Of a stretch of DNA of 16,989 nt, positions 915-16,989 are shown piece by piece. The stretch's first letter is position 1. Each line of letters opens with the position of its first letter. The notes below the pieces were generated by a model. It was given only the letters and a program-made list of their open reading frames with translations. It was not told the DNA's origin and searched no databases. Location: IMG/VR virus record IMGVR_UViG_2778261502_000004, positions 1-16,989 of that record; one strand, 5' to 3'. This stretch comes from a virus. Taxonomy: Duplodnaviria > Heunggongvirae > Uroviricota > Caudoviricetes. Position numbers and translations under genes: made by a program.

Positions 915-916
915 AA

Positions 917-1754: not shown

Positions 1755-1756
1755 AA

Positions 1757-2416
1757 TTAACGCCCTATTGAATACACCATTACATCCAGTGAGCTGGATG
1801 TATATGTACTGGTTGCAAGAAATGAAGAAAGATTGTTATTGGATGCACTGACAAATGGACTCGCCGCCACGTTAATGGTGCGGCTTTCAGTGTTGGCCCA
1901 TGAGCCAATAACCGTTGATGTGAACGGGATTAAATAGTTTGCTGATACTGTAGCCCCTGTAGTACCAGATGCTGCAGGAATACTTACTCTTTTCCACTGC
2001 AACATCCAGTTCTGAGGAAACCGTACATATCCTCCATTCAGTTCATTCCTGAATTCAAAACTACCCATATCCGGGATCTGATTTCCCCCTGTGCCCACAT
2101 CCCGTTTTGCCGCCTCTCCCAAACCAAGGTTTTCGAGAGCCGTTTTCACCGTGCCATCCGCTTTGATATCGCCAAACGGATTTTTGCGGCTTAACAGCAG
2201 CGCACGAAGCGCGGTAAGCAGCTGGTCGTGCCGCGCCTTCTCGAGACTGGCACCGGATGCCTCCACAACGCTGCAAAGCTCCTCCTGCAACATGTCAAAG
2301 TAGTCATCATCCAGATCGGTGGCAGGCGTGCCAGTCTGGGGGTTACCACGGGTAAAACCGTTTTTACCCGCGCCGAACTTATCCTTCTGCGCGGTTTTCG
2401 TGTCTATACGATGCAT
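1757..2416 (-). CDS. Side tail fibre protein (Mu S / e14 Stf-like): conserved N-terminal part joined to a variable C-terminal receptor-binding part
   Basis: 219 aa; N-terminus [47 protein letters not shown] is the conserved tail-fibre N-terminus as I recall it; the crossover site lies inside the gene at the [12 protein letters not shown] codons. Confidence 0.85.
2114..2139. repeat. Candidate invertase crossover site (pix/gix/cix-like) inside the tail-fibre gene, right boundary of invertible segment
   Basis: CTCTCCCAAACCAAGGTTTTCGAGAG with palindromic core AAACC-AA-GGTTT; ~60 bp of inverted homology with 556..616 follows on the inside of the segment. Confidence 0.65.
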
Positions 2417-2419
2417 GGA

Positions 2420-3004
2420 TTACTCCGGATATTTAAAAATTACGTAGGTATGCGACGGGCAGAGTTTGTTAAGCACGCACTCGACAACGGTGTCCCCCCA
2501 GATACGCAGTGCGGAATCACAGGGATCGCCACATGTCATCCAGGTGGTGTTGGTGGCGGCTGGCATGTTGATCTGCCAGTAATACCGCCATTCAGGCGCG
2601 TTCACAGCGTCAGTACAGGCCGATGAGCAGGTGAACGTGCTTTTGTCGTATCGCGTGATGGTGGCATCTGGTCTGCCCAGGGCAGCAAGCTGTGCAAGAT
2701 AAAAATCCTCGTTGATGCCGCCCGCCAGGTTAACCTTCGCATCCAGCCGTTGCTGACGCTGGCGAAGGGTCTGTGTCCCTGCGGGAATACATTCATCCGG
2801 CAGACCGCACAGACGCTCCCAGCGGTTTATCAGTTCAGTGGTGGTGCGCGGATCCAGCTCCCGCATCAGGGCATCCGCACGCTGATGAACGCGGGTTAAT
2901 GACGGTGCCGCACCGGCAATCGCCGGATCGCTGGCTGACCACGCCGGACCGGGGGGCAACAGTGCCGACAACAGACGGATGTAATCATCGTTTGTCACGT
3001 CCAT
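2420..3004 (-). CDS. Tail/baseplate protein of the YmfQ / Mu gp48 type (DUF2313-like)
   Basis: 194 aa [24 protein letters not shown]...[13 protein letters not shown]; sits directly upstream of the tail-fibre gene as ymfQ does in e14; recognised from memory, not aligned. Confidence 0.75.
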
Positions 3005-3140
3005 GAAATCGTCCCCAGTACCGCCAGTTCATTTTTTGCAATGGAGATATTGTCTGCCGGTGCAAGCAACTGATGGCTGTATTCCCCGTTCGCACCGGAA
3101 ATCGCCTCACTGATACGCGATACCTTCAGTTCTCCCTGCG
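2995..3140 (-). pseudogene. C-terminal remnant of the gene that normally precedes ymfQ (baseplate J-like by synteny)
   Basis: Open frame ...[46 protein letters not shown], stop overlapping the ymfQ-like start (ATGGACGTGA); no start codon; about 48 codons only. Confidence 0.3.
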
Positions 3141-3269
3141 GATATAGGGTTTGTCGCGGTTCGGGTATTCATGTGTTTCCACACGGCGACCGGTTCCCGC
3201 ACTTTCTTCTTCAACCTTAAACGGCACGCCGCGAAATGACGCGTCCTGAAGCCTGTCTTTCCACGTCAT
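3126..3269 (-). pseudogene. N-terminal remnant of a Mu N-like DNA-circularisation / tail protein, cut off after 47 codons
   Basis: MTWKDRLQDASFRGVPFKVEEESAGTGRRVETHEYPNRDKPYIRREN* with GGAG RBS; the SFRGVPF...GRR..HEYP.RD.PY motif matches the N-terminus of this family as I recall it; expected position after the tape measure in Mu-like order. Confidence 0.5.
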
Positions 3270-3285
3270 ATATACTCCGAAAATT

Positions 3286-3310
3286 AAAAAGCCACCTATT
3301 AGAAGGTGGC
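3286..3310 (-). terminator. Rho-independent terminator downstream of the 176-aa gene
   Basis: GCCACCT-TATTAGA-AGGTGGC hairpin; on the minus strand it is followed by TTTTT. Confidence 0.7.
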
Positions 3311-3330
3311 CTTGTAATGAATTTTATTAA

Positions 3331-3861
3331 TTAGCGAGTCAGAAACAACGAATCTTTATACTTTTGCTGTTGTTCATTTAAATACTTAGCTGTTTCATCG
3401 CTGGCAAATGGAAATATTACCGTATTTTTAGGCATGGTAATTTCTTTTTTGTCCAGCGTCAGAGTAAACATAGGAACATACTGAGCAGAGTAACGCACCG
3501 CAGAAACGAGCTCTAGTTTAGACTCTTCAATAACACTTAAATTATCCAGGCTAACTTTCTCTTCATCTTTTTTCTTTGACGCATTTAAAGTTTTTATTAC
3601 TTTATTTAATTTCTCCTGAAAATCCTCCTTAAAGTTTTCAGGATTGCCGTCGACAACAAGAATCTGTTCACCCTGATTATCTGGAAAAATAATCTTTGCA
3701 CTTATCAATTTATTTTCTTTATAAACATCACCAAGTTTTATGGCTCCTCCAGATAACTGAATAATATGTTCATCTTTAAAGGAGATGTTGCCAGAGATTA
3801 TGAGAGATGAAAAAATAGCCGCTGCTCCAAGAATTACACTTGCTGTGATATAGCCTTTCAT
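3331..3861 (-). CDS. Hypothetical membrane-anchored or secreted protein encoded by an AT-rich insertion
   Basis: 176 aa; hydrophobic N-terminus MKGYITASVILGAAAIFSSLIISG then a Lys/Glu/Asp-rich domain; visibly AT-rich between GC-rich tail genes; own terminator. Confidence 0.6.
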   Translation of the reverse strand: MKGYITASVILGAAAIFSSLIISGNISFKDEHIIQLSGGAIKLGDVYKENKLISAKIIFPDNQGEQILVVDGNPENFKEDFQEKLNKVIKTLNASKKKDEEKVSLDNLSVIEESKLELVSAVRYSAQYVPMFTLTLDKKEITMPKNTVIFPFASDETAKYLNEQQQKYKDSLFLTR

Positions 3862-3952
3862 TTTTCGCCTATTAACATTTTTCTAAATGTGCATTAATTC
3901 TATCACTCTATTTATGACTTACAACCAGCAATACATGTGAGGGGAATCCTGG

Positions 3953-5785
3953 CTACCAAAATCGGGTATAGCCAACATCGTGATTTATATCAATGCCACT
4001 GGAGCGTGTTTCCGTAACCCGCATACCTGGTGGCATATTTATAAATGATACCTTGATCTCACCATCAACTTTTGGCGCGGTAGCTTTATTAATCATGAAG
4101 GGATTCGAGCCTGTGGCATCGGAGGCGTTGTTTGCCTGAGCCGGATCCACCGCCGGATAAGGAGTGTATCCCCGTGCCGGTATTCCCGTCCCATAAGCAT
4201 CATAAGCACCCGCGCCCCACTGCGCCGAGTTAATGGTATCGACCGTGTCACCGGAACTGCCGGTAAACCATTCAATAATCGGCTTCAGCTTATCCCACAT
4301 ATCCTGAAACCACTTAACAACCGGTCCCCAGTTATTGATCACCATCCCCAGCGGCGACCAGGCAAAAACCTTCTTCAGAAGTTCCCGGCCAGCCTCAAAA
4401 TAAGGACCAATGGTTTCCCAGAGCTTCTTGAAATAAGGTCCGACAACATCCCAGTTAGTGATAATTAATCCCGCAGCCAGAGCAATCGCCGTCGCAATCA
4501 TGCCAATCGGCGTCATCGACATGATCCTGCTGACAATACTGATGGCACTGCCCACGCCCATCAATCCCAGTTTCAGAATCGCAAGACCGGCAGCAAGCCC
4601 GACGACGCCGCGAATAACCCGGGGATTTTCATCCGCAAACTTCGTGAATTTTTCCCCCAACTCCCCCAGCCATTGCGTGATATTTTTAGCGTCACCAGAA
4701 AATGCGCCGCCAATAGCTGCAAGACCGTTAGTTGCGGTCCCCGTCATTGCCTCCCACAGGTTGGACAGCGTACCAAGCTGTGCCTGAACACGTTTATTCA
4801 GGCTGGCCTGTTTATTCATCTTCTGCTGGATCTGATCGTAACCATCCTTTCCTTTATCGATCAGAGCATTGACCACCTGAAGGGTTTCGGCATCATCACC
4901 AAATATTGCCTTAAGTACACCTGTTCGCTTAACGTCGGTCAGTTTTCGCAGCTTTGCCAGTTGCTTAAACATGTTATCAAGACCGCCAAAACTCCCTTTG
5001 CCGTCAGTAAAATCGAGCTGCACTCCGAGTTTCTGGCGGGCCATGACTTTATTGACGTCCCTGATTTTCTTAACGCTTAATCCGGACTGGATAACTTTTC
5101 GCAGGGCATTACCTGCCGACTCCCCGTTCATCCCCATCTGATCCATCATGACGCTGATAGGGGCAAGGCTCTGTGCAGCCTGAAGTCCGTCCTTATTCAC
5201 CATCTTCAGAACAGAACTGGTTTTAGTGAAGAAGGACAACATGTTGGTATCGTCAACGCCCAGATAAAACGCCTTCTGGATAGTGTCGAACAGTCCCATC
5301 ATGTCTTCTGACGCAGTTCCGGTAGCATCCTGCATCTTTGCAGCAAACTCAGCAGCCGCTTCCGGTGTTTTTTTCAGTTGTACCGCAAGATAAGCTGTCG
5401 CTTTACCCACACCACCAAGAATGTTTTCTGCCGGGATCCCCTGACGCACCAGCATCTGCATCATGTTCTGGAAATCAGCCGTTGTACCGGGTAGCTGGTT
5501 ACCCAGGCCAATAGCCAGTTTATTGATGTCCTGAAAGCTCTTTCCAACCTCGCCGTTCGCATCCATCATGGCGACTTTCAGCCCGGTGGCGGCGTTTTCC
5601 TGATCGGCATAAGATTTCAGGGAAAGCGTCAGACCCGCTGCCAGTCCGCCACCAAGCGCCAGCCCACCCTGTGACGCTTCTTCCGCCTGGCGTTTAAATC
5701 CCCGGATTTTCTTTTGCATTTTCGACAGCGCGGGAGAAAGCCTGTCGACACCGGTGATCAACGCCTTAAGCTCAAATTCAGCCAT
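3953..5785 (-). CDS. Phage tail tape measure protein
   Basis: 610 aa, Ala/Gly/Leu-rich with internal hydrophobic stretches; follows the frameshifted chaperone pair, the conserved tail-gene position. Confidence 0.85.
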   Translation of the reverse strand: MAEFELKALITGVDRLSPALSKMQKKIRGFKRQAEEASQGGLALGGGLAAGLTLSLKSYADQENAATGLKVAMMDANGEVGKSFQDINKLAIGLGNQLPGTTADFQNMMQMLVRQGIPAENILGGVGKATAYLAVQLKKTPEAAAEFAAKMQDATGTASEDMMGLFDTIQKAFYLGVDDTNMLSFFTKTSSVLKMVNKDGLQAAQSLAPISVMMDQMGMNGESAGNALRKVIQSGLSVKKIRDVNKVMARQKLGVQLDFTDGKGSFGGLDNMFKQLAKLRKLTDVKRTGVLKAIFGDDAETLQVVNALIDKGKDGYDQIQQKMNKQASLNKRVQAQLGTLSNLWEAMTGTATNGLAAIGGAFSGDAKNITQWLGELGEKFTKFADENPRVIRGVVGLAAGLAILKLGLMGVGSAISIVSRIMSMTPIGMIATAIALAAGLIITNWDVVGPYFKKLWETIGPYFEAGRELLKKVFAWSPLGMVINNWGPVVKWFQDMWDKLKPIIEWFTGSSGDTVDTINSAQWGAGAYDAYGTGIPARGYTPYPAVDPAQANNASDATGSNPFMINKATAPKVDGEIKVSFINMPPGMRVTETRSSGIDINHDVGYTRFW

Positions 5786-5960
5786 GTGTGCGTTTCTCCT
5801 GCTCTATCCTGTTTGCCTGACTGACCAGTAAGGGAATTTCACTGATCGGCATATTCAGCAATTCGAAAGGATTAATGCGCCAGTAGCTGGCGCAGTCAAA
5901 GAAGCGATCAGTGAGGTATTCAGCCGTCAGGCCTGGAGGAAAAAACCAGCCACAAGCCAC
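5778..5960 (-). CDS. -1 frameshift extension of the tail assembly chaperone (G/GT-type fusion product)
   Basis: ORF in the -1 frame overlapping the chaperone 3' end and the tape-measure start; entered through the slippery heptamer at 5939..5945. Confidence 0.6.
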   Translation of the reverse strand: MACGWFFPPGLTAEYLTDRFFDCASYWRINPFELLNMPISEIPLLVSQANRIEQEKRTHG

Positions 5961-6196
5961 GCCGCTGCATTCAGGTCTGCCGGAGACATCTGGTCGACAG
6001 AGTTTTGCGGCACTTTCGCCAGCCGCACAATGTATTTCGACACCACATGCGCCAGAAGTCTGACGGACTCATCCTGATTCATCTGGTAGGGATACCCCAG
6101 CTCGCGGACATCTTTCCCGGTGGGCTCATCAAACTCCAGTACGGAGAGTGTCTCGCCATGAGCGGTAATCGGTTTCTTTAACTCAAGCTCTTTCAT
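5927..6196 (-). CDS. Tail assembly chaperone (Mu gp41 / lambda G-like)
   Basis: 89 aa between tube and tape measure; ends in the slippery site. Confidence 0.65.
   Translation of the reverse strand: MKELELKKPITAHGETLSVLEFDEPTGKDVRELGYPYQMNQDESVRLLAHVVSKYIVRLAKVPQNSVDQMSPADLNAAAWLVAGFFLQA
5939..5945 (-). other. Programmed -1 ribosomal frameshift slippery heptamer T_TTT_TTC
   Basis: Minus-strand GCT GGT TTT TTC CTC sits 4 codons before the chaperone stop; the -1 frame continues FFPPGLTAEYL... to 5778. Confidence 0.6.
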
Positions 6197-6552
6197 TACT
6201 GGTAATCCCCTTCTTCACCGTGGAACTCAAGATCGACCGTGCCTTCTTCGGCATTATGGTTCGCTTCGCCGTGCAGCCAGGCAGACGACAGTACATAGAC
6301 CTGACCGTTCGCCAGCTCGGCAGTGATGGTCATCTCATCAGACGAGGTGATTTTGCTCACCGGAAAATTCTTCGGCACCTTGAAGGTCCCTTTGACATAG
6401 GGCGCACGGTGAGTTTCCTTGCGGTCCACTGAACCGTCCAGGCCGATGATGTCATCATTGACCGTCCTGTTCATGGGCACCTCAATGCCGCCGGTCAGCG
6501 ATAGCTGCTGACCGTCAATTTTGAAATAACAGGTTCCCCCGATACGGGCCAT
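6196..6552 (-). CDS. Phage tail tube protein (Mu M-like)
   Basis: 118 aa MARIGGTCYFKIDGQQLSLTGG...; TAATG overlap with the sheath stop; sheath-tube-chaperone-tape measure order. Confidence 0.7.
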   Translation of the reverse strand: MARIGGTCYFKIDGQQLSLTGGIEVPMNRTVNDDIIGLDGSVDRKETHRAPYVKGTFKVPKNFPVSKITSSDEMTITAELANGQVYVLSSAWLHGEANHNAEEGTVDLEFHGEEGDYQ

Positions 6553-7457
6553 TATGCAGACTCCTCTGAATACTGAAGACGGAACTGGTTAACCAAGGCA
6601 AAGACACGCAACTGGTTAACATAGTCAGGCGGGAACAGCGTGTTCAGGCGGTTCGGATCGCTGGCATCACGCTCCACAACCAGGTACTGCTTAAACAGTT
6701 CGTAGTTTTCCACGATCCCCGCACGCTCAAGCTGACGGTAGGTTGCCAGCAGTTCCCCTTTGATTACCGCCGGGGTGACAATCGCCTGACCGGGACCAAA
6801 GCGGGTACCGTCGCTGGCAAGCTTGTGACGCCCGTACTTACTGGTAATGACGGATTTCAGTTTGCGCAGTACATACGCACTGGTATGCAGCGTCTCGCTG
6901 TCGAGGTAGCTGTTATCCGCAACCCCGTAAGCATTTTTCCTGTACGTGGTGACATCACGCTGAATGCGCAGCCCCCCGCTTTCGACATACGCCGTTGCCA
7001 CGCCATGAGACAGCAGGGTCTGCTGCTCGGTCATCGTGAACCGTTTCCCCTTCGGCGCAGGCAGCATACCCACCAGCTCACCGGTCTGCGTGGGACGTGC
7101 CGGATCGTTGCGGATAAACACCGCTGCGCGGGCGGTACGGCTTGCCGCCAGCTCGTCGGCAGGCGTCTGGGTCTCTTTTTCGTACCCCGCCAGGGTGATG
7201 TGCTGCTGGTTAAACTGGTCACCTGCGTTCACCAGTTCTGACAGTGTGCCGGTCTTTGCCGTATACACATGACCATACAGCTGACGCGCATAGCTCCAGC
7301 GACCGCTGGTATCGTTCATCTCGGTCACTGTCCCACTTCGAACCGTAGCCGCGCTGATGACGGGATTGTCCTGGTTTGTATTGCTTCCAGCCTTCGCTTT
7401 TGTGGCTTTCGCAGTAGCCTGACGGGTCTGTGGTTGTAGAGCGGCAGCCGCGAACAC
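6552..7457 (-). CDS. Contractile tail sheath protein, 5'-truncated; the upstream part of this ORF is probably out-of-frame read-through from an HNH gene remnant
   Basis: 301-aa ORF with GTG start and no RBS; C-terminal two-thirds sheath-like by synteny and by motifs I recall (RKNAYGVADNSYLD, GQAIVTP, VERDASDPNRLNTLFPPDYVNQ); first ~40 residues are low-complexity Ala/Thr/Lys; sheaths are normally over 370 aa. Confidence 0.6.
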   Translation of the reverse strand: MFAAAALQPQTRQATAKATKAKAGSNTNQDNPVISAATVRSGTVTEMNDTSGRWSYARQLYGHVYTAKTGTLSELVNAGDQFNQQHITLAGYEKETQTPADELAASRTARAAVFIRNDPARPTQTGELVGMLPAPKGKRFTMTEQQTLLSHGVATAYVESGGLRIQRDVTTYRKNAYGVADNSYLDSETLHTSAYVLRKLKSVITSKYGRHKLASDGTRFGPGQAIVTPAVIKGELLATYRQLERAGIVENYELFKQYLVVERDASDPNRLNTLFPPDYVNQLRVFALVNQFRLQYSEESA

Positions 7458-7485
7458 GGCAGGCTTTTGGGGTTCGAGGGGGCAT
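7219..7485 (-). pseudogene. N-terminal fragment of a phage HNH endonuclease fused out of frame to the sheath gene
   Basis: MPPRTPKACRVRGCRSTTTDPSGYCESHKSEGWKQ...RGYGSKWD shows the C-x3-GC...YC-x2-H...RGY..W pattern of the HNH N-terminus; AGGA 8 nt upstream of ATG 7485; similarity is lost after about residue 52. Confidence 0.4.
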
Positions 7486-7543
7486 TATTAATGTCCTAAA
7501 TAGTTTCCTCTCTAAAAACTAATTTGTGTTAGGGAAATCATTA

Positions 7544-7587
7544 AATGAAGTGAACCTTTTAGTACCCACTGTAAAATTCACTTCATT
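7544..7587 (-). terminator. Long inverted repeat just downstream of the 169-aa gene (possible terminator or protein-binding site)
   Basis: AATGAAGTGAA ... TTCACTTCATT, 11-bp perfect arms with a 22-nt loop; no clean U-tract. Confidence 0.35.
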
Positions 7588-7592
7588 AATAT

Positions 7593-8102
7593 TTAACCAA
7601 ATACAATGAATGTTCCAAAAGATGCTAATGATATATTTATCAGAGAATCCATACGAGCCTTAATTTCTGGCGTATCCTCGACCTCAGTACGCCATTGATT
7701 GACTGCCTCAATCATATCTCGACAAAACACATCTATTTGCAACTGAAGTTTGCCATTTAAGTGATTTAAATGCACTTGGCAATTTGGCCTAGGTGGTGGT
7801 GTAAAATTAAACTGCATCATTCTTTTCCTGTTCTCTGGATCCTGTCCAGCATGTAAACAAGAACAACGATACAGCCAAAAATCATCCGCATAAAATCGAC
7901 ACTGTTCATGTGTACCGGATGTATATTTATTTTCAAGATAACGAGAAACCCAATCTTTATACCATTTCCCTGTTTCACCCTTACCTATTTTGGGACGTTC
8001 AACGCTCCTGCAAATATCAGGCATAGCAAGAGCCATAAACAATGCCGCTAACCAATTCTCACTTTCAATTGAAGATTCAATTGATTTTATAAACCTTTCC
8101 AT
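7593..8102 (-). CDS. Hypothetical Cys/His-rich protein encoded by an AT-rich insertion between the lysis cassette and the HNH remnant
   Basis: 169 aa MERFIKSIESSIESENWLAALFMALAMPDICRS...YRCSCLHAG...; visibly AT-rich; no family recognised. Confidence 0.6.
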   Translation of the reverse strand: MERFIKSIESSIESENWLAALFMALAMPDICRSVERPKIGKGETGKWYKDWVSRYLENKYTSGTHEQCRFYADDFWLYRCSCLHAGQDPENRKRMMQFNFTPPPRPNCQVHLNHLNGKLQLQIDVFCRDMIEAVNQWRTEVEDTPEIKARMDSLINISLASFGTFIVFG

Positions 8103-8168
8103 AACTCACCTTTATATTATTTGATGATTATATTTATAGCACAGTTACAATCATTTTCCGGAAAATAT

Positions 8169-8420
8169 TTATTCATTTTGATATCCTATTTTTAGAATAT
8201 CCTTTTTATCTCTATTGCATTGCGCTAATGCAGATAACAAACTCGCATTCAGTTCCAGGCTAGCACCATATGTCAGTGGACTAGGTACAACTGGAATCGG
8301 TGTTTCAGAAGTCAGGCTGGCTGGCAGTGGTACCGCCGGAGTGTTCACGTAAACTGTCCGCGTACTTCCGCAACCGGTCAGCAGCGGCAGCAGGCACAGG
8401 ACGTGAAGCACAATCATCAT
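8169..8420 (-). CDS. Outer-membrane spanin lipoprotein (Rz1-like), overlapping the 3' part of Rz in another frame
   Basis: MMIVLHVLCLLPLLTGCGSTR... with lipobox LLTGC followed by a Pro-rich region; start inside Rz. Confidence 0.65.
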   Translation of the reverse strand: MMIVLHVLCLLPLLTGCGSTRTVYVNTPAVPLPASLTSETPIPVVPSPLTYGASLELNASLLSALAQCNRDKKDILKIGYQNE

Positions 8421-8697
8421 CCGCAACAGCCACTTTGATATCTTCCTGGGTTCTCTGTGACTCCAGTGCAATCTGCTGTTTTGCATGCTGGTTAGCCTCT
8501 ATAACTGTATTGATGATTTGCAGTGATTGCAGAACGTTACGGGTAATGGCAGTTGCTGATTCAGCATTTCGTATAGCCTCATCAACACGCTCCTTTTCGT
8601 GCAGATATTTGCTGTAGTAATGCCCGGCAGACCAGATGAAGGAACCAATGACGGTAACAAAGAAGGCAACAATAACCAGCTTATATCTCAGCTTCAT
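8305..8697 (-). CDS. Inner-membrane spanin (Rz-like)
   Basis: 130 aa with N-terminal transmembrane segment (LVIVAFFVTVIGSFIW) and a coiled-coil-like remainder; start overlaps the endolysin stop. Confidence 0.75.
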   Translation of the reverse strand: MKLRYKLVIVAFFVTVIGSFIWSAGHYYSKYLHEKERVDEAIRNAESATAITRNVLQSLQIINTVIEANQHAKQQIALESQRTQEDIKVAVADDDCASRPVPAAAADRLRKYADSLREHSGGTTASQPDF

Positions 8698-9157
8698 TTA
8701 CTACCCCACCAGCCTCTTTAAACCGGGAAATCAGGTCGCCAATTTTATGTTCATACTGACCGTAACCTGCACCAGGTAACGACGCCCAGATATTGCTGCA
8801 ACGATCGATAGCCTGACGGATATCACCGCGATCAATCATCGGTAAAGCGCCACGCTCTTTAATCTGCTGCAATGCCACAGCGTCCTGGCTTTTCGGAGAG
8901 AAGTCTTTCAGGCCAAGCTGCTTACGATAGGAATCCCACCAACGGGAAAGAAGCTGGTAGCGCCCGGCTGCTGTTGATTTGAGTTTTGGGTTTAGCGTGA
9001 CAAGTTTGCGAGGGTGATCGGAGTAATCAGTAAATAGCTCTCCGCCTACAATGACGTCATAACCATGATTTCTGGTTTTCTGCCGTCCGTTATCCGTTCC
9101 TTCTGACCATGCCACCATATCGAGGAAAGCTTTACGCTGAGGATTAAGATTTTGCAT
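8681..9157 (-). CDS. R: Endolysin, lambda R-type lytic transglycosylase
   Basis: 158 aa MQNLNPQRKAFLDMVAWSEGTDNGRQKTRNHGYDVIVGGELFTDYSDHPRKL..., near-identical to lambda R as I recall it; AGGGGTGA RBS. Confidence 0.93.
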   Translation of the reverse strand: MQNLNPQRKAFLDMVAWSEGTDNGRQKTRNHGYDVIVGGELFTDYSDHPRKLVTLNPKLKSTAAGRYQLLSRWWDSYRKQLGLKDFSPKSQDAVALQQIKERGALPMIDRGDIRQAIDRCSNIWASLPGAGYGQYEHKIGDLISRFKEAGGVVNEAEI

Positions 9158-9311
9158 TTTTCACCCCTGTCAGTCGTTCCCAGAAGTACGTCAGTGCAAC
9201 CGAACCCATTGCACCACTAATCCCCGCTGTCGCGAGAATCATGTAAATACTGAATCCACTTTCGATGCTGATCAGGCCACCAATAACACCGGTGAATCCT
9301 GATATCCGGTC
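9147..9311 (-). pseudogene. Start-less hydrophobic C-terminal remnant, probably of the holin gene
   Basis: Open frame ...SGFTGVIGGLISIESGFSIYMILATAGISGAMGSVALTYFWERLTGVKNAKS* ending in the ATG of R, the position of a holin 3' end; bounded upstream by an in-frame stop, no N-terminal part. Confidence 0.45.
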
Positions 9312-9486
9312 TTAAGTCAGATTTCGTAATTGCACCTGACGTGCATTGCTCAAGTTTTTTAGCCAGCACAAAACTGGCTTTTTTATAGCCATTGAAAACC
9401 AGCCGTAAGTAGCCAGGTGTTGAGCCAACTTTTCCGGCCAACTCGCCCTGCTGTTCTTTGGTTAAAGAGTCCCAATACGCTTTCAT
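9217..9486 (-). CDS. Cro-like HTH regulator (YdaS/Cro family) whose 3' end reads out of frame through the holin remnant
   Basis: Start ATG 9486 with GGAGGT RBS (MKAYWDSLTKEQQGELAGKVGSTPGYLRLVFNGYKKASFVLAKKLEQCTSGAITKSDLRPDI); the last 27 residues (RIHRCYWWPDQHRKW...) are Trp/Arg/His-rich, as expected for the wrong frame of a hydrophobic gene; divergent from cI. Confidence 0.6.
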   Translation of the reverse strand: MKAYWDSLTKEQQGELAGKVGSTPGYLRLVFNGYKKASFVLAKKLEQCTSGAITKSDLRPDIRIHRCYWWPDQHRKWIQYLHDSRDSGD

Positions 9487-9576
9487 ACAATATGTACCTC
9501 CGGTGTACATATTACATGATTAAAATGAACCTTCAAGATACTTGTACCTTAACGGTACAAGGGTTTTAATTTCGTT
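9487..9576. promoter_or_regulatory. Divergent immunity control region with two 19-bp palindromic operators and candidate pR and pRM promoters
   Basis: Operators ATGTACC-N5-TGTACAT (9492..9510) and TTGTACC-N5-GGTACAA (9542..9560); minus-strand promoter TTGAAG (9531..9536) / 16 bp / TAATAT (9509..9514); plus-strand TTTAAT at 9565..9570 lies just before the cI ATG, suggesting a leaderless cI message. Confidence 0.55.
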
Positions 9577-10251
9577 ATGAAAACAATCCATGACATCCGG
9601 CGGTCTAACGCCAGAAAACTGAGAGATGGTGTTGGCGGGAATTCTTCCTTTGCCACTATGATTGATCGCGAGCCAACCCAGACCAGCAGGTTTATGGGAG
9701 ATGGTGCTACTAAAAATATCGGTGACAGCATGGCACGACACATCGAAAAATGTTTCGACCTACCTGTCGGATGGCTCGATCAAGAACACCAGACAACGAA
9801 CATCACAAAAAAACCTGATGTTTCAATCACTAATAAACAAATCACATTAGTCCCTGTCATATCATGGGTACAGGCCGGAGCATGGAAAGAAGTTGGATAT
9901 TCTGAGGTTGATTTGAGCACAGCAGAAACGTATCCCTGCCCTGTACCCTGTGGGGAAATGACTTATATCTTGCGGGTGATAGGTGATTCAATGATTGATG
10001 AGTACCGCCCGGGAGACATGATTTTTGTCGATCCTGAAGTACCTGCCTGCCACGGTGACGACGTTATTGCATTGATGCACGATACAGGTGAAACCACCTT
10101 CAAAAGGTTAATAGAAGATGGGACACAGCGTTATCTCAAAGCGTTAAACCCAAACTGGCCTGAGCCTTACATTAAGATCAACGGTAATTGCTCTATAATT
10201 GGTACAGTGATTTTCTCAGGAAAACCAAGAAGATACAAAATCAAAGCCTAA
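9577..10251 (+). CDS. CI-type prophage repressor: phage-CI HTH N-domain plus LexA/S24-type autocleaving C-domain
   Basis: 224 aa; N-terminal ...GDSMARHIEKCFDLPVGWLDQ; C-terminal domain with Ser in VIGDSM and Lys in TFKRL, the S24 catalytic dyad context. Confidence 0.9.
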   Translation: MKTIHDIRRSNARKLRDGVGGNSSFATMIDREPTQTSRFMGDGATKNIGDSMARHIEKCFDLPVGWLDQEHQTTNITKKPDVSITNKQITLVPVISWVQAGAWKEVGYSEVDLSTAETYPCPVPCGEMTYILRVIGDSMIDEYRPGDMIFVDPEVPACHGDDVIALMHDTGETTFKRLIEDGTQRYLKALNPNWPEPYIKINGNCSIIGTVIFSGKPRRYKIKA

Positions 10252-10263
10252 TCAATGTTTATG

Positions 10264-10288
10264 AACCTGCTTCGGCAGGTTTTTTTAT
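10264..10288 (+). terminator. Rho-independent terminator after cI
   Basis: AACCTGC-TTCG-GCAGGTT stem-loop followed by TTTTTT. Confidence 0.8.
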
Positions 10289-10290
10289 AC

Positions 10291-10323
10291 TTGACAATGT
10301 ACCTTTGAGATACATAATGTACC
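10291..10323 (+). promoter_or_regulatory. pL-like early-left promoter with overlapping operator
   Basis: TTGACA (10291..10296) / 16 bp / CATAAT (10313..10318); operator ATGTACC-N5-GATACAT at 10297..10315 with the same 7-5-7 layout as the cro–cI operators; extra half-site ATGTACC at 10317..10323. Confidence 0.65.
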
Positions 10324-10409
10324 CAAGAGAAACAACGAACAGGCAGGACGCCCACGAAGTAGCCGCCTGGGGCATATGAAGTCCAGGATGATTCGTTAGC
10401 AACAAAAAA

Positions 10410-10440
10410 GCGCCCTACAGGACGCTTAGCTCTTTAACAA
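10410..10440 (+). promoter_or_regulatory. Candidate antitermination site: short hairpin followed by an rrn-type boxA
   Basis: GCTCTTTAACAA (10429..10440) matches the core of the rrn boxA consensus TGCTCTTTAACAA; preceded by hairpin GCGCC-CTACA-GGaCGC (10410..10425); located in the 5' leader downstream of the pL-like promoter. Confidence 0.5.
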
Positions 10441-10485
10441 TCTGGTCCCCATCAACAAGTAACTGATAACTTGAGGAGATGTGAA

Positions 10486-10692
10486 ATGCACAAAACAGAA
10501 CCCAAAATCGTCGCGCCTGGCTACACAGATGAGGAAATTTATGAGTGGATGACAAAGAAGCTGGCAGCTATAAACCAGCTTCGTGAAGTGCTGTCTTATC
10601 GACAGGAAACAATAGACTCCTTAAAAAAACTGGATCAGGAAATCACGGTTTTATCACAGGATGTTACTTTAGATATTGTGCAGACAAATTAG
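10486..10692 (+). CDS. Small hypothetical protein, first gene of the pL-like transcript
   Basis: 68 aa MHKTEPKIVAPGYTDEEIYEWMTKKLAAINQLREVLSYRQETIDSLKKLDQEITVL... ; GAGGAG RBS 7 nt upstream; not Arg-rich, so not an N-type antiterminator. Confidence 0.55.
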   Translation: MHKTEPKIVAPGYTDEEIYEWMTKKLAAINQLREVLSYRQETIDSLKKLDQEITVLSQDVTLDIVQTN

Positions 10693-11098
10693 GATCCCAT
10701 TCATTTTCGTCAAAATCATCAAAGTGATGAATTTGTGATCTCCAGTCTCGATAATCTAAAAATTTCTGGGCGGTTACGCTTATTTTATCAAGTGTGAGTT
10801 CATCCTGAATTGAAAGAAGAAGTTCATCAAATTTCATCTCATTAATCTGTTTTGGCATCCAGTGATGCTTCATCAGAATAAGGTGAACCAGAGCCTTTTT
10901 CCCATTCAACTGATTATAGGGAGTGCCGAATTTCTTCCGGTGCTCATGTAAGACAAGGTCCAAAAGAGTAAGTAATGTTGCCCTTGATTCAACTTTGCTT
11001 ATTTCGACTGATGACACTACCCCACTGATTTCAATGCCCCGATACTTTCCAACATTTTCACAGTGGGATTTGTACAGCGTATAGATATTACCGGACAT
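10664..11098 (-). CDS. Hypothetical protein on the opposite strand, AT-rich, 3' end overlapping the 68-aa gene by 29 bp
   Basis: 144 aa MSGNIYTLYKSHCENVGKYRGIEISGVVSSVEISKVESRATLLTLLDLVLHEHRKKFGTPYNQ...; AAGGA-like RBS; soluble; no family recognised. Confidence 0.55.
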   Translation of the reverse strand: MSGNIYTLYKSHCENVGKYRGIEISGVVSSVEISKVESRATLLTLLDLVLHEHRKKFGTPYNQLNGKKALVHLILMKHHWMPKQINEMKFDELLLSIQDELTLDKISVTAQKFLDYRDWRSQIHHFDDFDENEWDPNLSAQYLK

Positions 11099-11113
11099 TT
11101 CTTTTCCTTTTGC

Positions 11114-11162
11114 GTTGTTGGGGATAACCAGATTAACCGAATCCTTGTTGTTGGGGAATAAC
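11114..11162. repeat. Two direct repeats just upstream of the 144-aa gene start
   Basis: GTTGTTGGGGATAACC (11114..11129) and GTTGTTGGGGAATAAC (11147..11162), 17 bp apart. Confidence 0.5.
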
Positions 11163-11382
11163 TAGGTCCACCTCGCCTGATGTGGCTAAAAGCAGGCACA
11201 TAACAGCTAAGTATTTTCAACCAGAGAGAATCCTTAGCGTTGTGGTGAATGCGGCTCAGCGCACGCGGGTTAAGGTTGAGGCTGACAGTCGACCTTCTGT
11301 GGATACCCACCCGCCTGGTGTGCAACCTTCGCCAGGCACCGGGAGGCACCCGGCACCACAACTTTATGCTGTGTGTAGTCTT

Positions 11383-11429
11383 GGCGGTACCAGCTTGTAC
11401 CCTTGCTTCCGGCTGGTACCGTCCTTTTT
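11383..11429 (+). terminator. Strong rho-independent terminator inside the early-left leader (tL1-like)
   Basis: 10–12 bp GC-rich stem (CGGTACCAGC / GCTGGTACCG), 17-nt loop, then TTTTT. Confidence 0.7.
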
Positions 11430-11431
11430 AC

Positions 11432-11516
11432 AAAACAGAGAAGAGCATCACCGGACGACGGGCTCATAACCCAATCCATCCGGGCGGCAGTCACCGCAGG
11501 TGTTCTTCTCTGTTTT
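11432..11516. repeat. 16-bp inverted repeat enclosing a GC-rich ~53-nt segment, right after the terminator
   Basis: AAAACAGAGAAGAGCA (11432..11447) versus TGTTCTTCTCTGTTTT (11501..11516), one mismatch. Confidence 0.5.
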
Positions 11517-11566
11517 GTGGAGAAACTAACCGACCTTGCAGGGTCGATATGATGAGGAGCAGCAAA

Positions 11567-11929
11567 ATGGCTAGCGAACGCAGTACTGATGTGCAGGCAT
11601 TTATCGGGGAGCTGGACGGCGGCGTATTTGAAACCAAAATCGGCGCAGTTCTCAGTGAAGTCGCTTCCGGTGTGATGAACACGAAAACCAAAGGTAAGGT
11701 CTCGCTCAACCTGGAAATCGAACCGTTTGATGAGAACCGAGTGAAAATCAAACACAAACTCTCATATGTTCGCCCGACTAACCGCGGGAAAATTTCCGAA
11801 GAAGACACCACCGAAACGCCGATGTATGTCAATCGCGGTGGTCGCCTGACTATTCTGCAGGAAGACCAGGGACAGTTACTGACTCTTGCCGGTGAACCTG
11901 ACGGAAAACTCCGCGCAGCAGGTCGTTAA
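11567..11929 (+). CDS. yfdP: YfdP-like early-left prophage protein
   Basis: Likely start ATG 11567 with GAGGAG RBS, 120 aa (the ORF track extends it upstream to 11249 without support); size and position match yfdP of the CPS-53 yfdP–yfdT cluster as I recall it. Confidence 0.55.
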   Translation: MASERSTDVQAFIGELDGGVFETKIGAVLSEVASGVMNTKTKGKVSLNLEIEPFDENRVKIKHKLSYVRPTNRGKISEEDTTETPMYVNRGGRLTILQEDQGQLLTLAGEPDGKLRAAGR

Positions 11930-11994
11930 TATCGTTTTTAATTAACTGATTATTTATCTCATCACTGAATATCTTTATATAGTGAGGACTTATT

Positions 11995-12819
11995 ATGTCT
12001 CAGAACTTAGACGCAACCGCAATTAATCAAATCCATGCCCTTATTTCTGCTCAGGGTGTTAATGAAATTATCAGTAAGATTGGTGCCGATGCTGTGGCAT
12101 TGCCTGAGAATTTCCGCATTCATGATCTGGAAAAATTTAATTTAAATCGCTTCCGTTTCCGTGGTGCGCTTTCCACTGCCAGCATCGATGACTTTACCCG
12201 TTATTCTAAAGATCTTGCAGATGAAGGCACCCGCTGCTTTATCGATGCTGATAATATGCGTGCCGTCAGTGTGCTTAACCTGGGTACTATTGATGAACCA
12301 GGTCACGCAGATAACACCGCCACACTCAAACTGAAAAAGACAGCACCGTTCTCTGCTCTGTTGTCTGTTAACGGCGAGCGTAACTCCCAGAAGTCACTGG
12401 CAGAATGGATTGAAGACTGGGCCGACTATCTTGTGGGCTTTGATGCTAATGGTGACGCTATTCAGGCAACAAAAGCGGCTGCGGCTGTCCGTAAAATCAC
12501 GATTGAAGCAAACCAGACCGCTGATTTTGAAGATAATGACTTCAGCGGCAAACGCTCCCTGATGGAGTCTGTCGAAGCGAAGACCAAAGACATTATGCCA
12601 GTGGCATTTGAATTTAAATGCGTTCCGTTTGAAGGTCTGAAAGAACGTCCGTTTAAATTACGCCTCAGTATTATCACTGGCGATCGTCCTGTACTGGTTC
12701 TGCGCATTATTCAGCTGGAGGCGGTGCAGGAAGAAATGGCTAACGAATTTCGTGATCTGCTTGTTGAGAAATTCAAGGACAGCAAAGTAGAAACCTTTAT
12801 TGGTACTTTCACCGCCTGA
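11995..12819 (+). CDS. yfdQ: YfdQ-like protein (DUF2303 family)
   Basis: 274 aa; GAGGA RBS; size and order as in CPS-53; not aligned. Confidence 0.65.
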
Positions 12820-12831
12820 TTTCATTACTGC

Positions 12832-12853
12832 AAATGCCCCTGCGGGGGCATTT
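12832..12853 (+). terminator. Perfect hairpin between the yfdQ-like and yfdR-like genes (weak terminator or attenuator)
   Basis: AATGCCCC-TGCG-GGGGCATT followed by T-ATGG; short U-tract. Confidence 0.35.
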
Positions 12854-12946
12854 ATGGAAACGTAATTTACTCAATAATCGCCGGATGGTGAGGGATTCTT
12901 TTTACCAGAATTCAGCGCGGTGCAGCGCATATACGTGGAGAACAAA

Positions 12947-13483
12947 ATGTCATTTATTAAAACTTTTTCCGGGAAGCATTTTTATTATGACAGGATAAAT
13001 AAAGACGACATCGATATTAACGATATCGCGGTTTCCCTTTCAAATATCTGTCGCTTTGCCGGTCATCTTTCGCACTTCTACAGCGTCGCCCAACATGCGG
13101 TTCTTTGCAGCCAGCTGGTGCCGCAGGAATTTGCTTTTGAAGCGTTAATGCATGATGCAACAGAAGCGTATTGCCAGGACATTCCCGCACCACTGAAACG
13201 CCTTCTTCCTGACTATAAACAAATGGAAGAAAAAATAGACGCCGTAATCCGTGAGAAATACGGGTTACCTCCAGTTATGAGTACGCCCGTGAAATATGCC
13301 GATCTCATCATGCTGGCAACCGAACGCCGCGATCTCGGGCTTGATGATGGCTCTTTCTGGCCTGTACTGGAAGGTATCCCGGCAACAGAGATGTTCAACG
13401 TGATTCCACTGGCACCGGGCCATGCCTACGGGATGTTTATGGAACGCTTTAACGAGTTATCGGAGTTACGCAAATGCGCATGA
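12947..13483 (+). CDS. yfdR: HD-domain phosphohydrolase, YfdR/YfbR-type 5'-deoxynucleotidase
   Basis: 178 aa from ATG 12947 (GGAG RBS; the track's GTG at 12920 is less likely); H..H in SVAQHAVLC and HD in LMHDATEAY. Confidence 0.8.
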   Translation: MSFIKTFSGKHFYYDRINKDDIDINDIAVSLSNICRFAGHLSHFYSVAQHAVLCSQLVPQEFAFEALMHDATEAYCQDIPAPLKRLLPDYKQMEEKIDAVIREKYGLPPVMSTPVKYADLIMLATERRDLGLDDGSFWPVLEGIPATEMFNVIPLAPGHAYGMFMERFNELSELRKCA

Positions 13484-13836
13484 ATGTTTTCGAAATGGAA
13501 GGGTTTCTTCGTGGGAGATGTGTACCGCGAGATCTGAAAGTAAATGAAACAGATGCTGAATACCTGGTGCGTAAATTCGATGCGCTTGAAGCTAAATATG
13601 CAGCACAGGAAAACAAAGTAATACCAGTGTCAACTGAACTGCCACCAGCAAATGAAAGTGTTTTGTTATTCGATGCTAACGGAGAAGGCTGGCTAATTGG
13701 CTGGCGTTCTCTCTGGTACACCTGGGGACAAAAAGAAACCGGAGAATGGCAGTGGACATTTCAGGTCGGGGACCTTGAAAACGTCAATATCACTCACTGG
13801 GCAGTAATGCCAAAAGCACCGGAGGCTGGAGCATAA
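13474..13836 (+). CDS. yfdS: DUF551-type prophage protein (YfdS-like)
   Basis: 120 aa; C-terminal ...LLFDANGEGWLIGW...ITHWAVMPKAPE pattern typical of DUF551; start overlaps the yfdR-like stop. Confidence 0.7.
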   Translation: MRMNVFEMEGFLRGRCVPRDLKVNETDAEYLVRKFDALEAKYAAQENKVIPVSTELPPANESVLLFDANGEGWLIGWRSLWYTWGQKETGEWQWTFQVGDLENVNITHWAVMPKAPEAGA

Positions 13837-14141
13837 TGACCACTTTTACCGACAAAGAACTGATTAAAGAAATTAAAGAGCGTATCAGCAGCCTTGACGT
13901 GCGAGACGATATTGAGCGCCGTGCTTATGAAATCGCACTCCTATCTCTGGAAGTAGAACCAGATGAACGCGAAGCTTATGAATTATTCATGGAAAAGCGT
14001 TTCGGTGACTTAGTAGATCGTCGGAGAGCAAAAAACGGCGATAACGAATACATGGCATGGGATATGACTCTCGGTTGGATCGTCTGGCAGCAACGAGCTG
14101 GTATCCATTTTTCAACAATGTCACAGCAAGAGGTGAAATAA
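13836..14141 (+). CDS. yfdT: YfdT-like early-left prophage protein
   Basis: 101 aa; TAATG overlap with the preceding gene; size and position match yfdT as I recall it. Confidence 0.55.
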   Translation: MTTFTDKELIKEIKERISSLDVRDDIERRAYEIALLSLEVEPDEREAYELFMEKRFGDLVDRRRAKNGDNEYMAWDMTLGWIVWQQRAGIHFSTMSQQEVK

Positions 14142-14491
14142 TGGAGCCATACAGCCTCACACTCGATGAGGCCTGTCATTTTCTCAAGATATCCAGACCG
14201 ACTGCCATTAACTGGATACGCACAGGGCGTCTTCAGGCAACACGCAAAGATCCCACTAAGAATAAATCTCCTTACCTCACAACACGACAAGCCTGCATTG
14301 CGGCTCTTCAGTCTCCGCTGCATACTGTCCAGGTGAGCGCGGGTGATGGCATAACAGAGGAAAGAAAATGTCACTCTTCCGCAGAGGTGAAATATGGTAC
14401 GCCAGTTTCACATTGCCGAACGGTAAAAGATTTAAACAGTCTCTTGGAACAAAGGACAAAAGGCAGGCGACAGAACTCCATGACAAGCTAA
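14141..14491 (+). CDS. xis: Excisionase (P22 Xis-like)
   Basis: Start ATG 14141 (AGGTGA RBS; TAATG overlap with the previous gene), 116 aa [33 protein letters not shown]...; 3' end overlaps the integrase start by ~124 bp. Confidence 0.8.
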
Positions 14492-15531
14492 AGGCTGAAG
14501 CATGGCGGGTCAGCAAACTTGGTGAAATACCTGATATAACGTTCGAGGAAGCGTGTGTCAGGTGGCTTGAAGAGAAAGCACATAAAAAATCACTGGACGA
14601 TGACAAAAGCCGGATCGGATTCTGGCTTCAACATTTCGCAGGAATGCAACTAAGAGACATTACTGAATCAAAAATTTATTCAGCAATGCAGAAAATGACG
14701 AACCGGCGTCATGAGGAAAACTGGAAACTCAGGGCAGAAGCATGCAGAAAAAAAGGGAAACCTGTTCCAGAATACACGCCAAAACCAGCGTCCGTTGCAA
14801 CGAAGGCTACGCATCTTTCATTTATAAAGGCCCTACTAAGAGCCGCAGAGCGTGAATGGAAAATGCTGGATAAGGCACCAATTATTAAAGTGCCCCAACC
14901 AAAGAATAAACGGATCCGCTGGCTGGAGCCCCATGAAGCACAAAGGCTGATTGATGAATGTCCGGAGCCATTAAAGTCTGTTGTTGAATTTGCACTGGCA
15001 ACAGGCCTAAGACGCTCGAACATCATCAACCTTGAATGGCAACAAATAGATATGCAGCGCCGGGTGGCATGGATAAACCCGGAAGAGAGTAAATCAAACC
15101 GCGCAATTGGCGTTGCGCTGAATGATACTGCATGTCGCGTATTGAAAAAACAAATCGGGAATCATCACCGTTGGGTATTTGTGTACAAGGAAAGCTGTAC
15201 CAAACCAGACGGAACGAAAGCGCCAACAGTCAGGAAGATGCGGTATGACGCAAACACAGCCTGGAAAGCGGCGCTGAGACGGGCTGGTATTGATGATTTC
15301 AGATTTCACGACTTGAGACACACCTGGGCAAGTTGGCTGGTTCAAGCCGGAGTCCCGTTGTCAGTGTTACAGGAAATGGGAGGCTGGGAGTCTATCGAAA
15401 TGGTTCGTCGATATGCTCACCTTGCACCTAATCACCTTACCGAACACGCACGGCAAATAGACTCGATCCTAAACCCATCGGTCCCAAATTTGTCCCAGTC
15501 AAAAAATAAGGAAGGTACTAATGATGTGTAA
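14368..15531 (+). CDS. int: Tyrosine-recombinase integrase of the P22 / SfV family
   Basis: 387 aa [24 protein letters not shown]...; C-terminal [10 protein letters not shown]...VRRYAHL carries the catalytic His/Arg/Tyr context; ends 15 bp from the tRNA 3' end. Confidence 0.93.
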
Positions 15532-15545
15532 CTTATTGATTTAAA

Positions 15546-15621
15546 TGGTGCCGATAATAGGAGTCGAACCTACGACCTTCGCATTACGAATGCGCTGCTC
15601 TACCAACTGAGCTATATCGGC
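15546..15621 (-). tRNA. thrW: tRNA-Thr (anticodon CGU), the attachment tRNA
   Basis: Reverse complement reads GCCGATATAGCTCAGTTGGTAGAGCAGCGCATTCGTAATGCGAAGGTCGTAGGTTCGACTCCTATTATCGGCACCA, 76 nt with CCA end and anticodon loop CATTCGTAATG. Confidence 0.97.
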
Positions 15622-15735
15622 CCTGAAAGGACATGTTCACGAACGTGAATCACGGTGGACAAGGTTAAAACTAACCGGGCGATGCGTCAATGGCCTTGTG
15701 AATCAAATGGCTACTTTTGCATCACCCGGTTTTAT

Positions 15736-16989
15736 TTACGCACGAATGGTGTAATCACCAATGCCGATCCACTTGTAAGTGGTCAGTGCTTCCAGCCCCA
15801 TTGGGCCACGCGCGTGGAGTTTTTGTGTGCTTACCGCCACTTCCGCACCCAGACCAAACTGGCCGCCGTCGGTAAAACGCGTAGAGGCGTTAACGTAAAC
15901 AGCGGACGAATCCACTTCGTTAACAAAACGCTGGGCGTTGCGCATATCGCGGGTCAGGATCGCATCGGAGTGTTGTGTGCCGTGTTCACGAATATGGGCG
16001 ATGGCATCGTCAAGATCGCTGACGATTTTGACGTTCAAATCTAATGACAGAAACTCATCGTCATACTCTTCGGCTTTAACAGCAACCACCTTCGCAGGGC
16101 CTGCCTGCAACTGCGCCAGTGCAGCTGCATCTGCGTGTAATGTCACGCCGCTTTCCGCCATTTGTTTGCTTAATGCGGGCAGGAAGCTATCGGCGATGTT
16201 TTTATTCACCAGCAACGTTTCAACCGTATTACATGTGCTCGGACGCTGAGTTTTCGCGTTGACGATCACTTTTAATGCTTCAGCGATCTCTACACTTTCA
16301 TCAACGTAAATATGGCATACGCCTATACCACCTGTGATCACCGGGATTGTCGACTGTTCACGGCACAGTTTATGCAAACCAGCGCCACCACGCGGGATCA
16401 GCATGTCGATGTATTTATCCATACGCAGCATTTCACTGACCAGCGCACGGTCAGGATTATCAATCGCCTGCACGGCACCCGCCGGTAAGCCGCAGGATTT
16501 CAGGGCGTCCTGAATCACCGCCACCGTTGCAGCGTTAGTGCGACACGTTTCTTTGCCACCGCGCAGGATCACCGCATTACCGGTTTTCAGGCACAGCGAA
16601 GCGACATCAACCGTCACGTTCGGGCGCGCTTCATAAATCACGCCAATAACCCCCAGCGGTACGCGACGACGCTCAAGACGCAGGCCGCTGTCCAGTACGC
16701 CGCCATCGATTACCTGCCCCACCGGATCGGCGAGGTTGCACACCTGACGTACATCGTCGGCAATGCCTTTCAGCCGTGCGGGCGTCAGTGCCAGACGGTC
16801 AAGCATCGCTTCGCTAAGGCCATTGGCTCGCGCGTCAGCAACATCCTGGGCGTTAGCGTTGAGGATGATTTCGCTTTGTGCTTCCAGTTCATCGGCGATT
16901 TTTTCCAGCACGCGATTTTTTTCGCGGCTGGAGAGTTGCGCTAATTTATACGAGGCTTGCTTCGCGGCAATGCCCATTTGTTCCAGCAT
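15736..16989 (-). CDS. proA: Gamma-glutamyl phosphate reductase (proline biosynthesis)
   Basis: Complete 417-aa ORF starting exactly at the window end ([27 protein letters not shown]...); recognised as E. coli ProA; adjacent to thrW as in E. coli. Confidence 0.97.

Follow-up and report, generated by a model that had tools for sequence, protein, structure and literature searches.

A junction between cro and a truncated holin gene in a defective lambdoid prophage of Escherichia coli

How does the immunity switch of a lambdoid prophage come to lie directly against its lysis enzymes, and what might lysis genes do in such a position? The question is raised by the window analysed here, the whole stretch of 16,989 nucleotides that makes up positions 1 to 16,989 of IMG/VR record IMGVR_UViG_2778261502_000004, in which a cro-like gene, divergent from a cI-type repressor gene, is followed by a piece of a holin gene and then by endolysin and spanin genes. 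The window holds a defective lambdoid prophage of the SfV/SfIV/e14 type lying in tRNA-Thr (thrW) next to proA of E. coli, with the tRNA-Thr(CGT) gene at 15546–15621, between int and proA. For phages of the SfV type, which are relatives of e14, thrW beside proA is the established integration site (PMC3636060); the window itself contains no gtr serotype-conversion genes. The features on which the argument turns are listed here by their window positions.

9577–10251, plus strand: cI-type repressor gene (ymfK-like, LexA/S24 family), 224 aa, intact (Pfam Peptidase_S24, E 1.5e-26)
9487–9576: divergent cI–cro control region with operator-like palindromes (inverted-repeat search, comparison with SfV)
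9217–9486, minus strand: Cro′ ORF, 89 aa, ATG at 9486 and stop TAG at 9219–9217 (translation and alignment)
9144–9304, minus strand: holin pseudogene fragment, residues 51–101 of a 101-aa LydA-type holin plus the stop codon (DNA identity, PF16083, phrog_785)
8681–9157, minus strand: endolysin R gene, lambda R-type lytic transglycosylase, 158 aa, intact (1am7, phrog_90)
8305–8697, minus strand: Rz-like inner-membrane spanin gene (DUF2570), 130 aa, intact (phrog_214, coding sequence in 22AR0750)
8169–8420, minus strand: Rz1/LysC outer-membrane lipoprotein spanin gene, 83 aa (PF23793, phrog_456, lysC in 22AR0750)
7593–8102, minus strand: 169-aa ORF of unknown function between Rz1 and an HNH gene (phrog_18591, E 1e-73)
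7327–7328: second deletion junction, the 5′ part of an HNH endonuclease gene fused to the 3′ 60% of a tail-sheath gene (2-bp overlap, AC)
About 3140–3144, minus strand: third deletion junction, the 3′ end of a gp47-like baseplate J gene joined to a DNA-circularisation gene (ORF 3126–3269)

The join between cro and holin

Megablast of the region 8100–10300 divides it into two blocks that are never found together in one place in any record: lysis-side pieces stop at 9304, immunity-side pieces begin at 9301, and a three-way base alignment places the junction at 9301–9304, in a 4-bp overlap (GATA) common to the cro side and the holin side. The block 8100–9304 is the lysis cassette of many E. coli prophages, 100% identical in three complete genomes, and the annotations under these matches include ‘phage holin family protein’, glycoside hydrolase, DUF2570 and LysC. 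The 1978 bases from 7327 to 9304 are 100% identical to the lysis cassette of a prophage at thrW–proA of E. coli 22AR0750. The block 9301–10300 matches the cro/cI region of Shigella phages SfIV (99.4%) and SfV (98.3%), and over 9301–10397 the alignment to SfV cro/cI is gap-free at 98.2%, with 99.8% identity to E. coli L1PEag1. The first-pass annotation had described the immunity region as fused straight to the lysis enzymes, and comparison with intact relatives bears this out base by base. We reject a deletion mediated by an insertion sequence, as base alignment finds neither foreign DNA nor an IS element at the 9301–9304 join.

On the immunity side, the join truncates and extends cro at once. 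Cro′ consists of native Cro residues 1–62 (9486–9301), 100% identical to SfV/SfIV Cro, followed by 27 codons of out-of-frame holin DNA (9300–9220), such that after ...LRPDI (residue 62) the protein reads RIHRCYWWPDQHRKWIQYLHDSRDSGD. Translation and alignment thus agree with the earlier proposal that the cro-like gene passes, after its LRPDI motif, into the wrong frame of a hydrophobic coding region. By identity, and by its position divergent from cI across the operator region, the gene belongs with the SfV/SfIV/e14-type cro genes. The native SfV protein is 66 aa long and ends ...SDLRPDIYPKD, a length and terminus that Cro′ lacks, its last four native residues (YPKD) having been replaced. Judged on its sequence, the 27-residue tail is meaningless frame-shifted coding, and it is not conserved: in a tblastn search of 50,697 phage records, the Cro homologues of 29 records align to residues 1–62 only, and the tail (residues 62–89) matches only an out-of-frame reading of the ‘holin protein S’ gene of phage PhiR47_2. 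Likewise, phrog_35 (‘transcriptional repressor’) covers residues 1–62 only, and the Pfam YdaS_toxin match falls under the cut-off (21.5 bits vs 30). That a wrong frame should stay open for 27 codons is unremarkable, with a chance of (61/64)^27, or about 0.27. A single-sequence AlphaFold2 model of Cro′ has a mean pLDDT of 48 and a pTM of 0.30, values too low for it to say anything about the fold. We take 9486 as the start because the 89-aa form beginning MKAY is the one that has been called and matches native Cro; a 97-aa ORF from an upstream ATG at 9510 was considered and rejected, as it is not on record.

On the lysis side, the minus-strand frame 9311–9147 (stop at 9146–9144) reads DRISGFTGVIGGLISIESGFSIYMILATAGISGAMGSVALTYFWERLTGVKNAKS, which from its S onward is residues 51–101 of the 101-aa holin WP_000544528.1; the DNA of the fragment matches the E. 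coli 22AR0750 holin gene at every base. When the 9147–9311 frame is searched against holin families, as the first-pass annotation had proposed, it matches both PF16083 (Phage_holin_3_3; E 2.9e-9, 37.4 bits against a cut-off of 28.4, profile positions 37–78 of 78) and phrog_785 ‘holin’ (E 2.6e-19, positions 53–105 of 107). Hydropathy of the full holin indicates that the fragment lacks, besides its own start, the first transmembrane segment (TMD1, about residues 4–29, the most strongly hydrophobic) and half of the second (TMD2). With residues 1–50, the native start, TMD1 and half of TMD2 lost, we regard it as a pseudogene fragment rather than a functional holin. There is accordingly no complete ORF with the native start and full transmembrane set of a LydA-type holin, and what lies directly upstream of the endolysin gene is only the 3′ half of a holin gene; no other small membrane-protein ORF was found beside the lysis cassette. 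The holin frame overlaps the endolysin gene (ATG at 9157) by 14 nt before it stops, as it does natively.

The description of this remnant as start-less needs amending: the native start is indeed gone, but an internal ATG at 9243–9241 opens a 32-codon ORF. This ORF runs from 9243 to 9144 on the minus strand (MILATAGISGAMGSVALTYFWERLTGVKNAKS) and spans the last transmembrane segment of the holin, with no obvious ribosome-binding site before the ATG at 9241–9243. In two public assemblies, gene callers have called ORFs of 32 aa and 46 aa within the holin fragment.

Between cro and holin, about 8 kb and 11–13 genes (replication, Nin-type functions and Q) are absent, as is clear from three relatives in which the interval is complete.

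SfV: cro/cI 98% identical; cro-to-holin interval orf36 to orf48, including Q, about 8.6 kb
E. coli L1PEag1 prophage at thrW–proA: immunity region 99.8% identical; cro-to-holin interval of 13 genes, 7.6 kb
E. coli 22AR0750 prophage at thrW–proA: lysis cassette 100% identical; cro-to-holin interval of 11 genes, about 8.1 kb

Set against SfV and the two E. coli thrW prophages, the window does lack the replication, Q-type regulatory and holin 5′ regions, just as had been suggested from its sequence.

Origin of the arrangement

We think it very probable that the cro-to-holin arrangement arose by one illegitimate-recombination deletion inside a prophage of the SfV/SfIV/e14 type, which put late lysis genes behind pR. 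A single internal deletion is the simplest origin because gene order and orientation are the same in SfV, L1PEag1 and 22AR0750. Such a deletion, of about 7.6–8.1 kb, would have run between the GATA in cro codon 63 and the GATA in holin codon 50/51, removing ymfL, the replication genes, PerC, Dam, RusA, KilA-N, DUF968, Q with its promoter region and holin codons 1–50, and its products would be the chimeric Cro′, the holin pseudogene fragment and an intact R–Rz–Rz1 set near the immunity switch. No complete genome was found that carries both the exact immunity region and the exact holin of the window, and the parent is therefore reconstructed from two relatives, 22AR0750 for the lysis side and L1PEag1 for the immunity side.

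It may be asked whether two resident prophages, one with immunity of the SfIV/e14 type and the other with the LydA-type holin cassette, were joined by illegitimate recombination instead. The two sides do find their best matches in separate genomes: 22AR0750 is 100% identical on the lysis side but has a different immunity region, L1PEag1 shows 99.8% identity on the immunity side but has a holin of the lambda family, and many E. coli genomes have several places matching segments of the window. However, the two sides keep the collinearity, strand and order found in all the intact thrW relatives, the flanks (int to cI on one side, Rz1 to the tail genes on the other) come from one SfV-type backbone at one site, and lambdoid mosaicism easily gives a parent with both modules, so that we consider a join between two prophages very unlikely. 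An assembly chimera of two prophage regions, which might be suspected since repeated prophage modules are often collapsed or wrongly joined in short-read assemblies, appears to us to have next to no chance of being correct. A 145,890-bp contig of NCBI assembly GCA_002233275.1 is 100% identical across the junction over 12,270 bases, and a separately assembled Logan contig from SRR3957146 is 100% identical across it over 7,149 bases, although the read sets of the two may not be independent. A one-residue variant (C48Y) of the chimeric Cro′ occurs on a third contig, and the join falls at a 4-bp overlap, not inside a long repeat. We conclude from the two assemblies, identical across it, that the junction is real.

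The junction is also rare, and probably recent. Among the 15 billion proteins of one collection, Cro′ is seen on about three contigs and the exact R protein on 237; the full-length holin cluster has 286 member sequences, one listed member being on at least 1000 contigs. The junction itself occurs in 0 of 5,426 complete E. coli genomes and 0 of 50,697 phage records, and the junction 36-mer ACACCGGTGAATCCTGATATCCGGTCTTAAGTCAGA has 0 exact matches among species-representative genomes, a result of no weight for rarity, as that set has one genome per species. This distribution bears on a further reading, in which the locus would be a selected, domesticated endolysin–spanin operon under SOS/CI control, serving in wall remodelling, vesicle production or assisted lysis in trans in the manner of DLP12. 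In its favour, the loss of neighbouring genes has spared R, Rz, Rz1, cI and the control region, and the cryptic DLP12 lysis operon S–R–Rz/Rz1 has been reported to modulate vesicle production (PMC7918800). Yet the DLP12 module keeps its holin, the module in the window is without one and the Cro tail is frame-shifted junk; moreover, a nearly full-length prophage carries the retained genes with 100% identity, which leaves no time for decay and makes their intactness uninformative about selection. Together with the scarcity of the junction, these points leave domestication extremely improbable, and we give only slightly more credence, still very little, to the related idea that an accidental, Q-independent endolysin–spanin operon run by CI and SOS is exploited by the host as a lysis helper. 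If that were so, R and Rz/Rz1 would be pre-loaded on DNA damage, with lysis following once the holin of another prophage fires or the membrane is damaged, and co-resident phages, toxins or vesicles would be released faster. Nothing suggests selection for the rewired lysis genes.

Predicted control and activity of the lysis genes

If a deletion within one prophage did put the lysis genes behind pR, the state of the switch upstream of them matters. By sequence it has the parts of a lambdoid immunity switch, namely a CI of the S24 type, a divergent cro and operator palindromes. The counterpart of the cI gene in E. coli L1PEag1 is annotated ymfK, LexA family protein, and the region 9487–9576 corresponds to the ‘putative operator region’ annotated in SfV; inverted repeats are found at 9541–9561 (CTTGTACC/GGTACAAG) and as 15-nt arms at 9483–9497 and 9505–9519, and the cI–cro intergenic region differs by one base from that of the intact relative L1PEag1. 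A candidate pR can be picked out by eye on the minus strand (TTGAAG at 9536–9531, a 16-nt spacer and TAATAT at 9514–9509, with 8 of 12 matches); a consensus promoter scan flagged no minus-strand promoter upstream of cro, this candidate being under its threshold.

Downstream of this switch, the minus strand from 9486 to 8169 has no strong predicted intrinsic terminator. Minus-strand cro does contain two weak terminator-like hairpins (9416–9399 and 9391–9375), and as both are also in native cro, pR must read through them anyway. About 60 nt separate the Cro′ stop codon from R–Rz–Rz1 downstream of it, R retains a Shine-Dalgarno sequence of its own (GGGGTG, 5 nt before the ATG), and the RNA fold from the Cro′ stop to the R start is nothing notable (z = −1.43). 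We infer that read-through from pR into R–Rz–Rz1 under CI control is plausible, since the deletion removed any tR-type terminators along with late control by Q and pR′, and the transcript should then cross into the lysis genes. In lysogeny, CI would repress pR, keeping cro′ and the lysis genes silent; on SOS induction, RecA-stimulated self-cleavage of CI through its S24 domain would release pR, from which cro′, R, Rz, Rz1 and the 169-aa ORF would be transcribed early and independently of Q.

The genes so placed are intact. R is a full-length, soluble endolysin of the lambda R type (GH104), matching lambda lysozyme (PDB 1am7; E 4.2e-96) over residues 2–157 of 158 and phrog_90 ‘endolysin’ (E 5e-63), with no Pfam match at E <= 0.01, and it contains a WSEG motif whose Glu19 is presumably the catalytic residue, as in lambda R. 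Rz matches phrog_214 ‘Rz-like spanin’ (E 4.4e-46) and, slightly under the Pfam cut-off of 26.6 bits, PF10828 (E 3e-5, 24.4 bits). Rz1 matches PF23793 LysC (E 7.3e-16) and phrog_456 (E 1.1e-24), carries the lipobox LLTGC and partly overlaps Rz, at its 3′ end and in a different reading frame, so that the pair, a type II membrane protein and an overlapping lipobox protein, has the make-up of a two-component spanin. All three genes are base-identical to the annotated intact genes of E. coli 22AR0750. The 169-aa ORF beyond them (7593–8102), probably co-transcribed with Rz1, occupies the same position in 22AR0750 and is absent from the L1PEag1 relative; it has no Pfam or PADLOC match, and no long hydrophobic stretch was seen in it by eye.

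Soluble endolysins get to the cell wall by way of the lesions that canonical holins open (PMC9239132). The maximum 15-residue Kyte-Doolittle hydropathy of R is 0.56, and R has no hydrophobic window or N-terminal signal-anchor. A SAR endolysin, for which a holin would be dispensable, was rejected on this ground: with no hydrophobic N-terminal segment, R cannot export itself. As R is soluble, of the lambda R type and without a holin, no lysis would be expected; R would stay in the cytoplasm, the spanins would be blocked by intact murein, and lysis would follow only if another prophage supplied a holin or the membrane were damaged.

A decaying prophage and its known relatives

The cro–holin deletion is one of three in the window. 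The second, at 7327–7328, was found from blastn maps against SfV and 22AR0750 and by base alignment, and lies within two minus-strand ORFs (7219–7485 and 6552–7457), of which the 301-aa ORF 6552–7457 has sheath domains from profile position 22 on; cos, terminase, portal, head and the 5′ part of the sheath gene, about 8.7 kb in comparison with 22AR0750, have been lost here. At the third (about 3140–3144), the DNA-circularisation gene (PF07157) keeps its first 47 codons, and about 4.1 kb of baseplate genes are gone. The overlaps at the three junctions are 4, 2 and about 5 bp. Having thus lost its early genes and holin, its packaging and head genes and part of its baseplate, the element can neither replicate, package nor lyse. 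The cro–lysis arrangement, as one of three deletions in a dead prophage, is a by-product of decay and not a designed operon, and we regard the cro–holin fusion as ordinary prophage decay. Most plausibly, the remnant still confers superinfection immunity of the SfIV/e14 type.

Beyond its annotation and bookkeeping, the importance of the locus is small. It offers a base-resolved example of lambdoid prophage decay, with three short-overlap deletions in one element, and shows how such deletions make chimeric ORFs that are kept in databases under normal family names: RefSeq WP_249538688.1, an exact match to Cro′, is labelled ‘YdaS family helix-turn-helix protein’ though 27 of its 89 residues come from frame-shifted holin DNA. 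The placing of late lysis genes behind an early promoter may also be usable as a natural construct for testing holin dependence in a wild strain.

Three other segments of the window stand out from its relatives or carry rearranged genes. First, neither SfV nor the 22AR0750 prophage has 3297–3958, a segment between the tape-measure and DNA-circularisation genes that looks like a moron; its minus-strand ORF (3331–3861, 176 aa) has a hydrophobic N-terminus by eye and belongs to phrog_5485, of unknown function, with no Pfam or PADLOC match. Second, the stretch from cI to the early-left operon (10398–11167) is unlike that of SfV and is common to many E. coli prophages. Its minus-strand ORF (10664–11098) encodes an ‘ECs1072 family phage-associated protein’ of 144 aa (phrog_5286, of unknown function), and a second, small ORF is convergent on the plus strand (10471–10692); terminator-like hairpins at 10263–10282 and 10408–10427 flank these, and there is no PADLOC match. 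Finally, the minus-strand ORF at 1–525 is a Pin/Gin-like serine invertase in which only the resolvase N-terminal domain is matched (residues 15–147); its C-terminal DNA-binding part is replaced by unrelated sequence, so that it is probably frameshifted. It adjoins tail-fibre and tail-fibre-assembly ORFs on both strands (516–2416), which suggests an invertible host-range segment, one that may now be frozen.

Among known systems, the closest are SfV, SfIV, SfI and the full-length thrW–proA prophages of L1PEag1 and 22AR0750. The window has in common with these the tRNA-Thr site by proA and the int–xis–early-left genes in the same order and orientation, with identities of 98–99.8% in cI/cro, 89–100% in R–Rz–Rz1 and 96–97% in the Mu-like tail genes. 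In contrast to the window, they have a complete holin and a cro–holin interval of 7.6–8.8 kb, and they possess the terminase, head and baseplate genes of a kind that the window has lost at its three junctions. The holin fragment compares in the same way with the LydA-type holins (PF16083, phrog_785): the 9144–9304 frame fits the C-terminal half of the family above the Pfam threshold, but of the 101 residues of the full-length homologue the window keeps 51–101 only.

A functional parallel is offered by the holin-defective (S-null) mutants of lambda, in which a soluble R-type endolysin and Rz/Rz1 are likewise present without a functional holin. In these mutants, endolysin is expected to build up in the cytoplasm, with no lysis until the membrane is breached, in line with the principle given in PMC9239132. 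The lysis genes of lambda itself are late genes that need antitermination by Q at pR′, whereas in the window Q and pR′ have been deleted and the lysis genes should be read from the early pR. As a remnant, the window resembles e14, CPS-53 and DLP12 of K-12, lambdoid and SfV-related elements that keep the immunity pair and fragments of modules; the tie to e14, documented for SfI and SfV (PMC3636060), extends to nomenclature, RefSeq using e14 gene names for relatives of the genes found here (ymfK for the repressor, ymfT for cro). DLP12, like the window, retains a lysis operon (PMC7918800), but its lysis module still has a holin and has not been placed behind pR.
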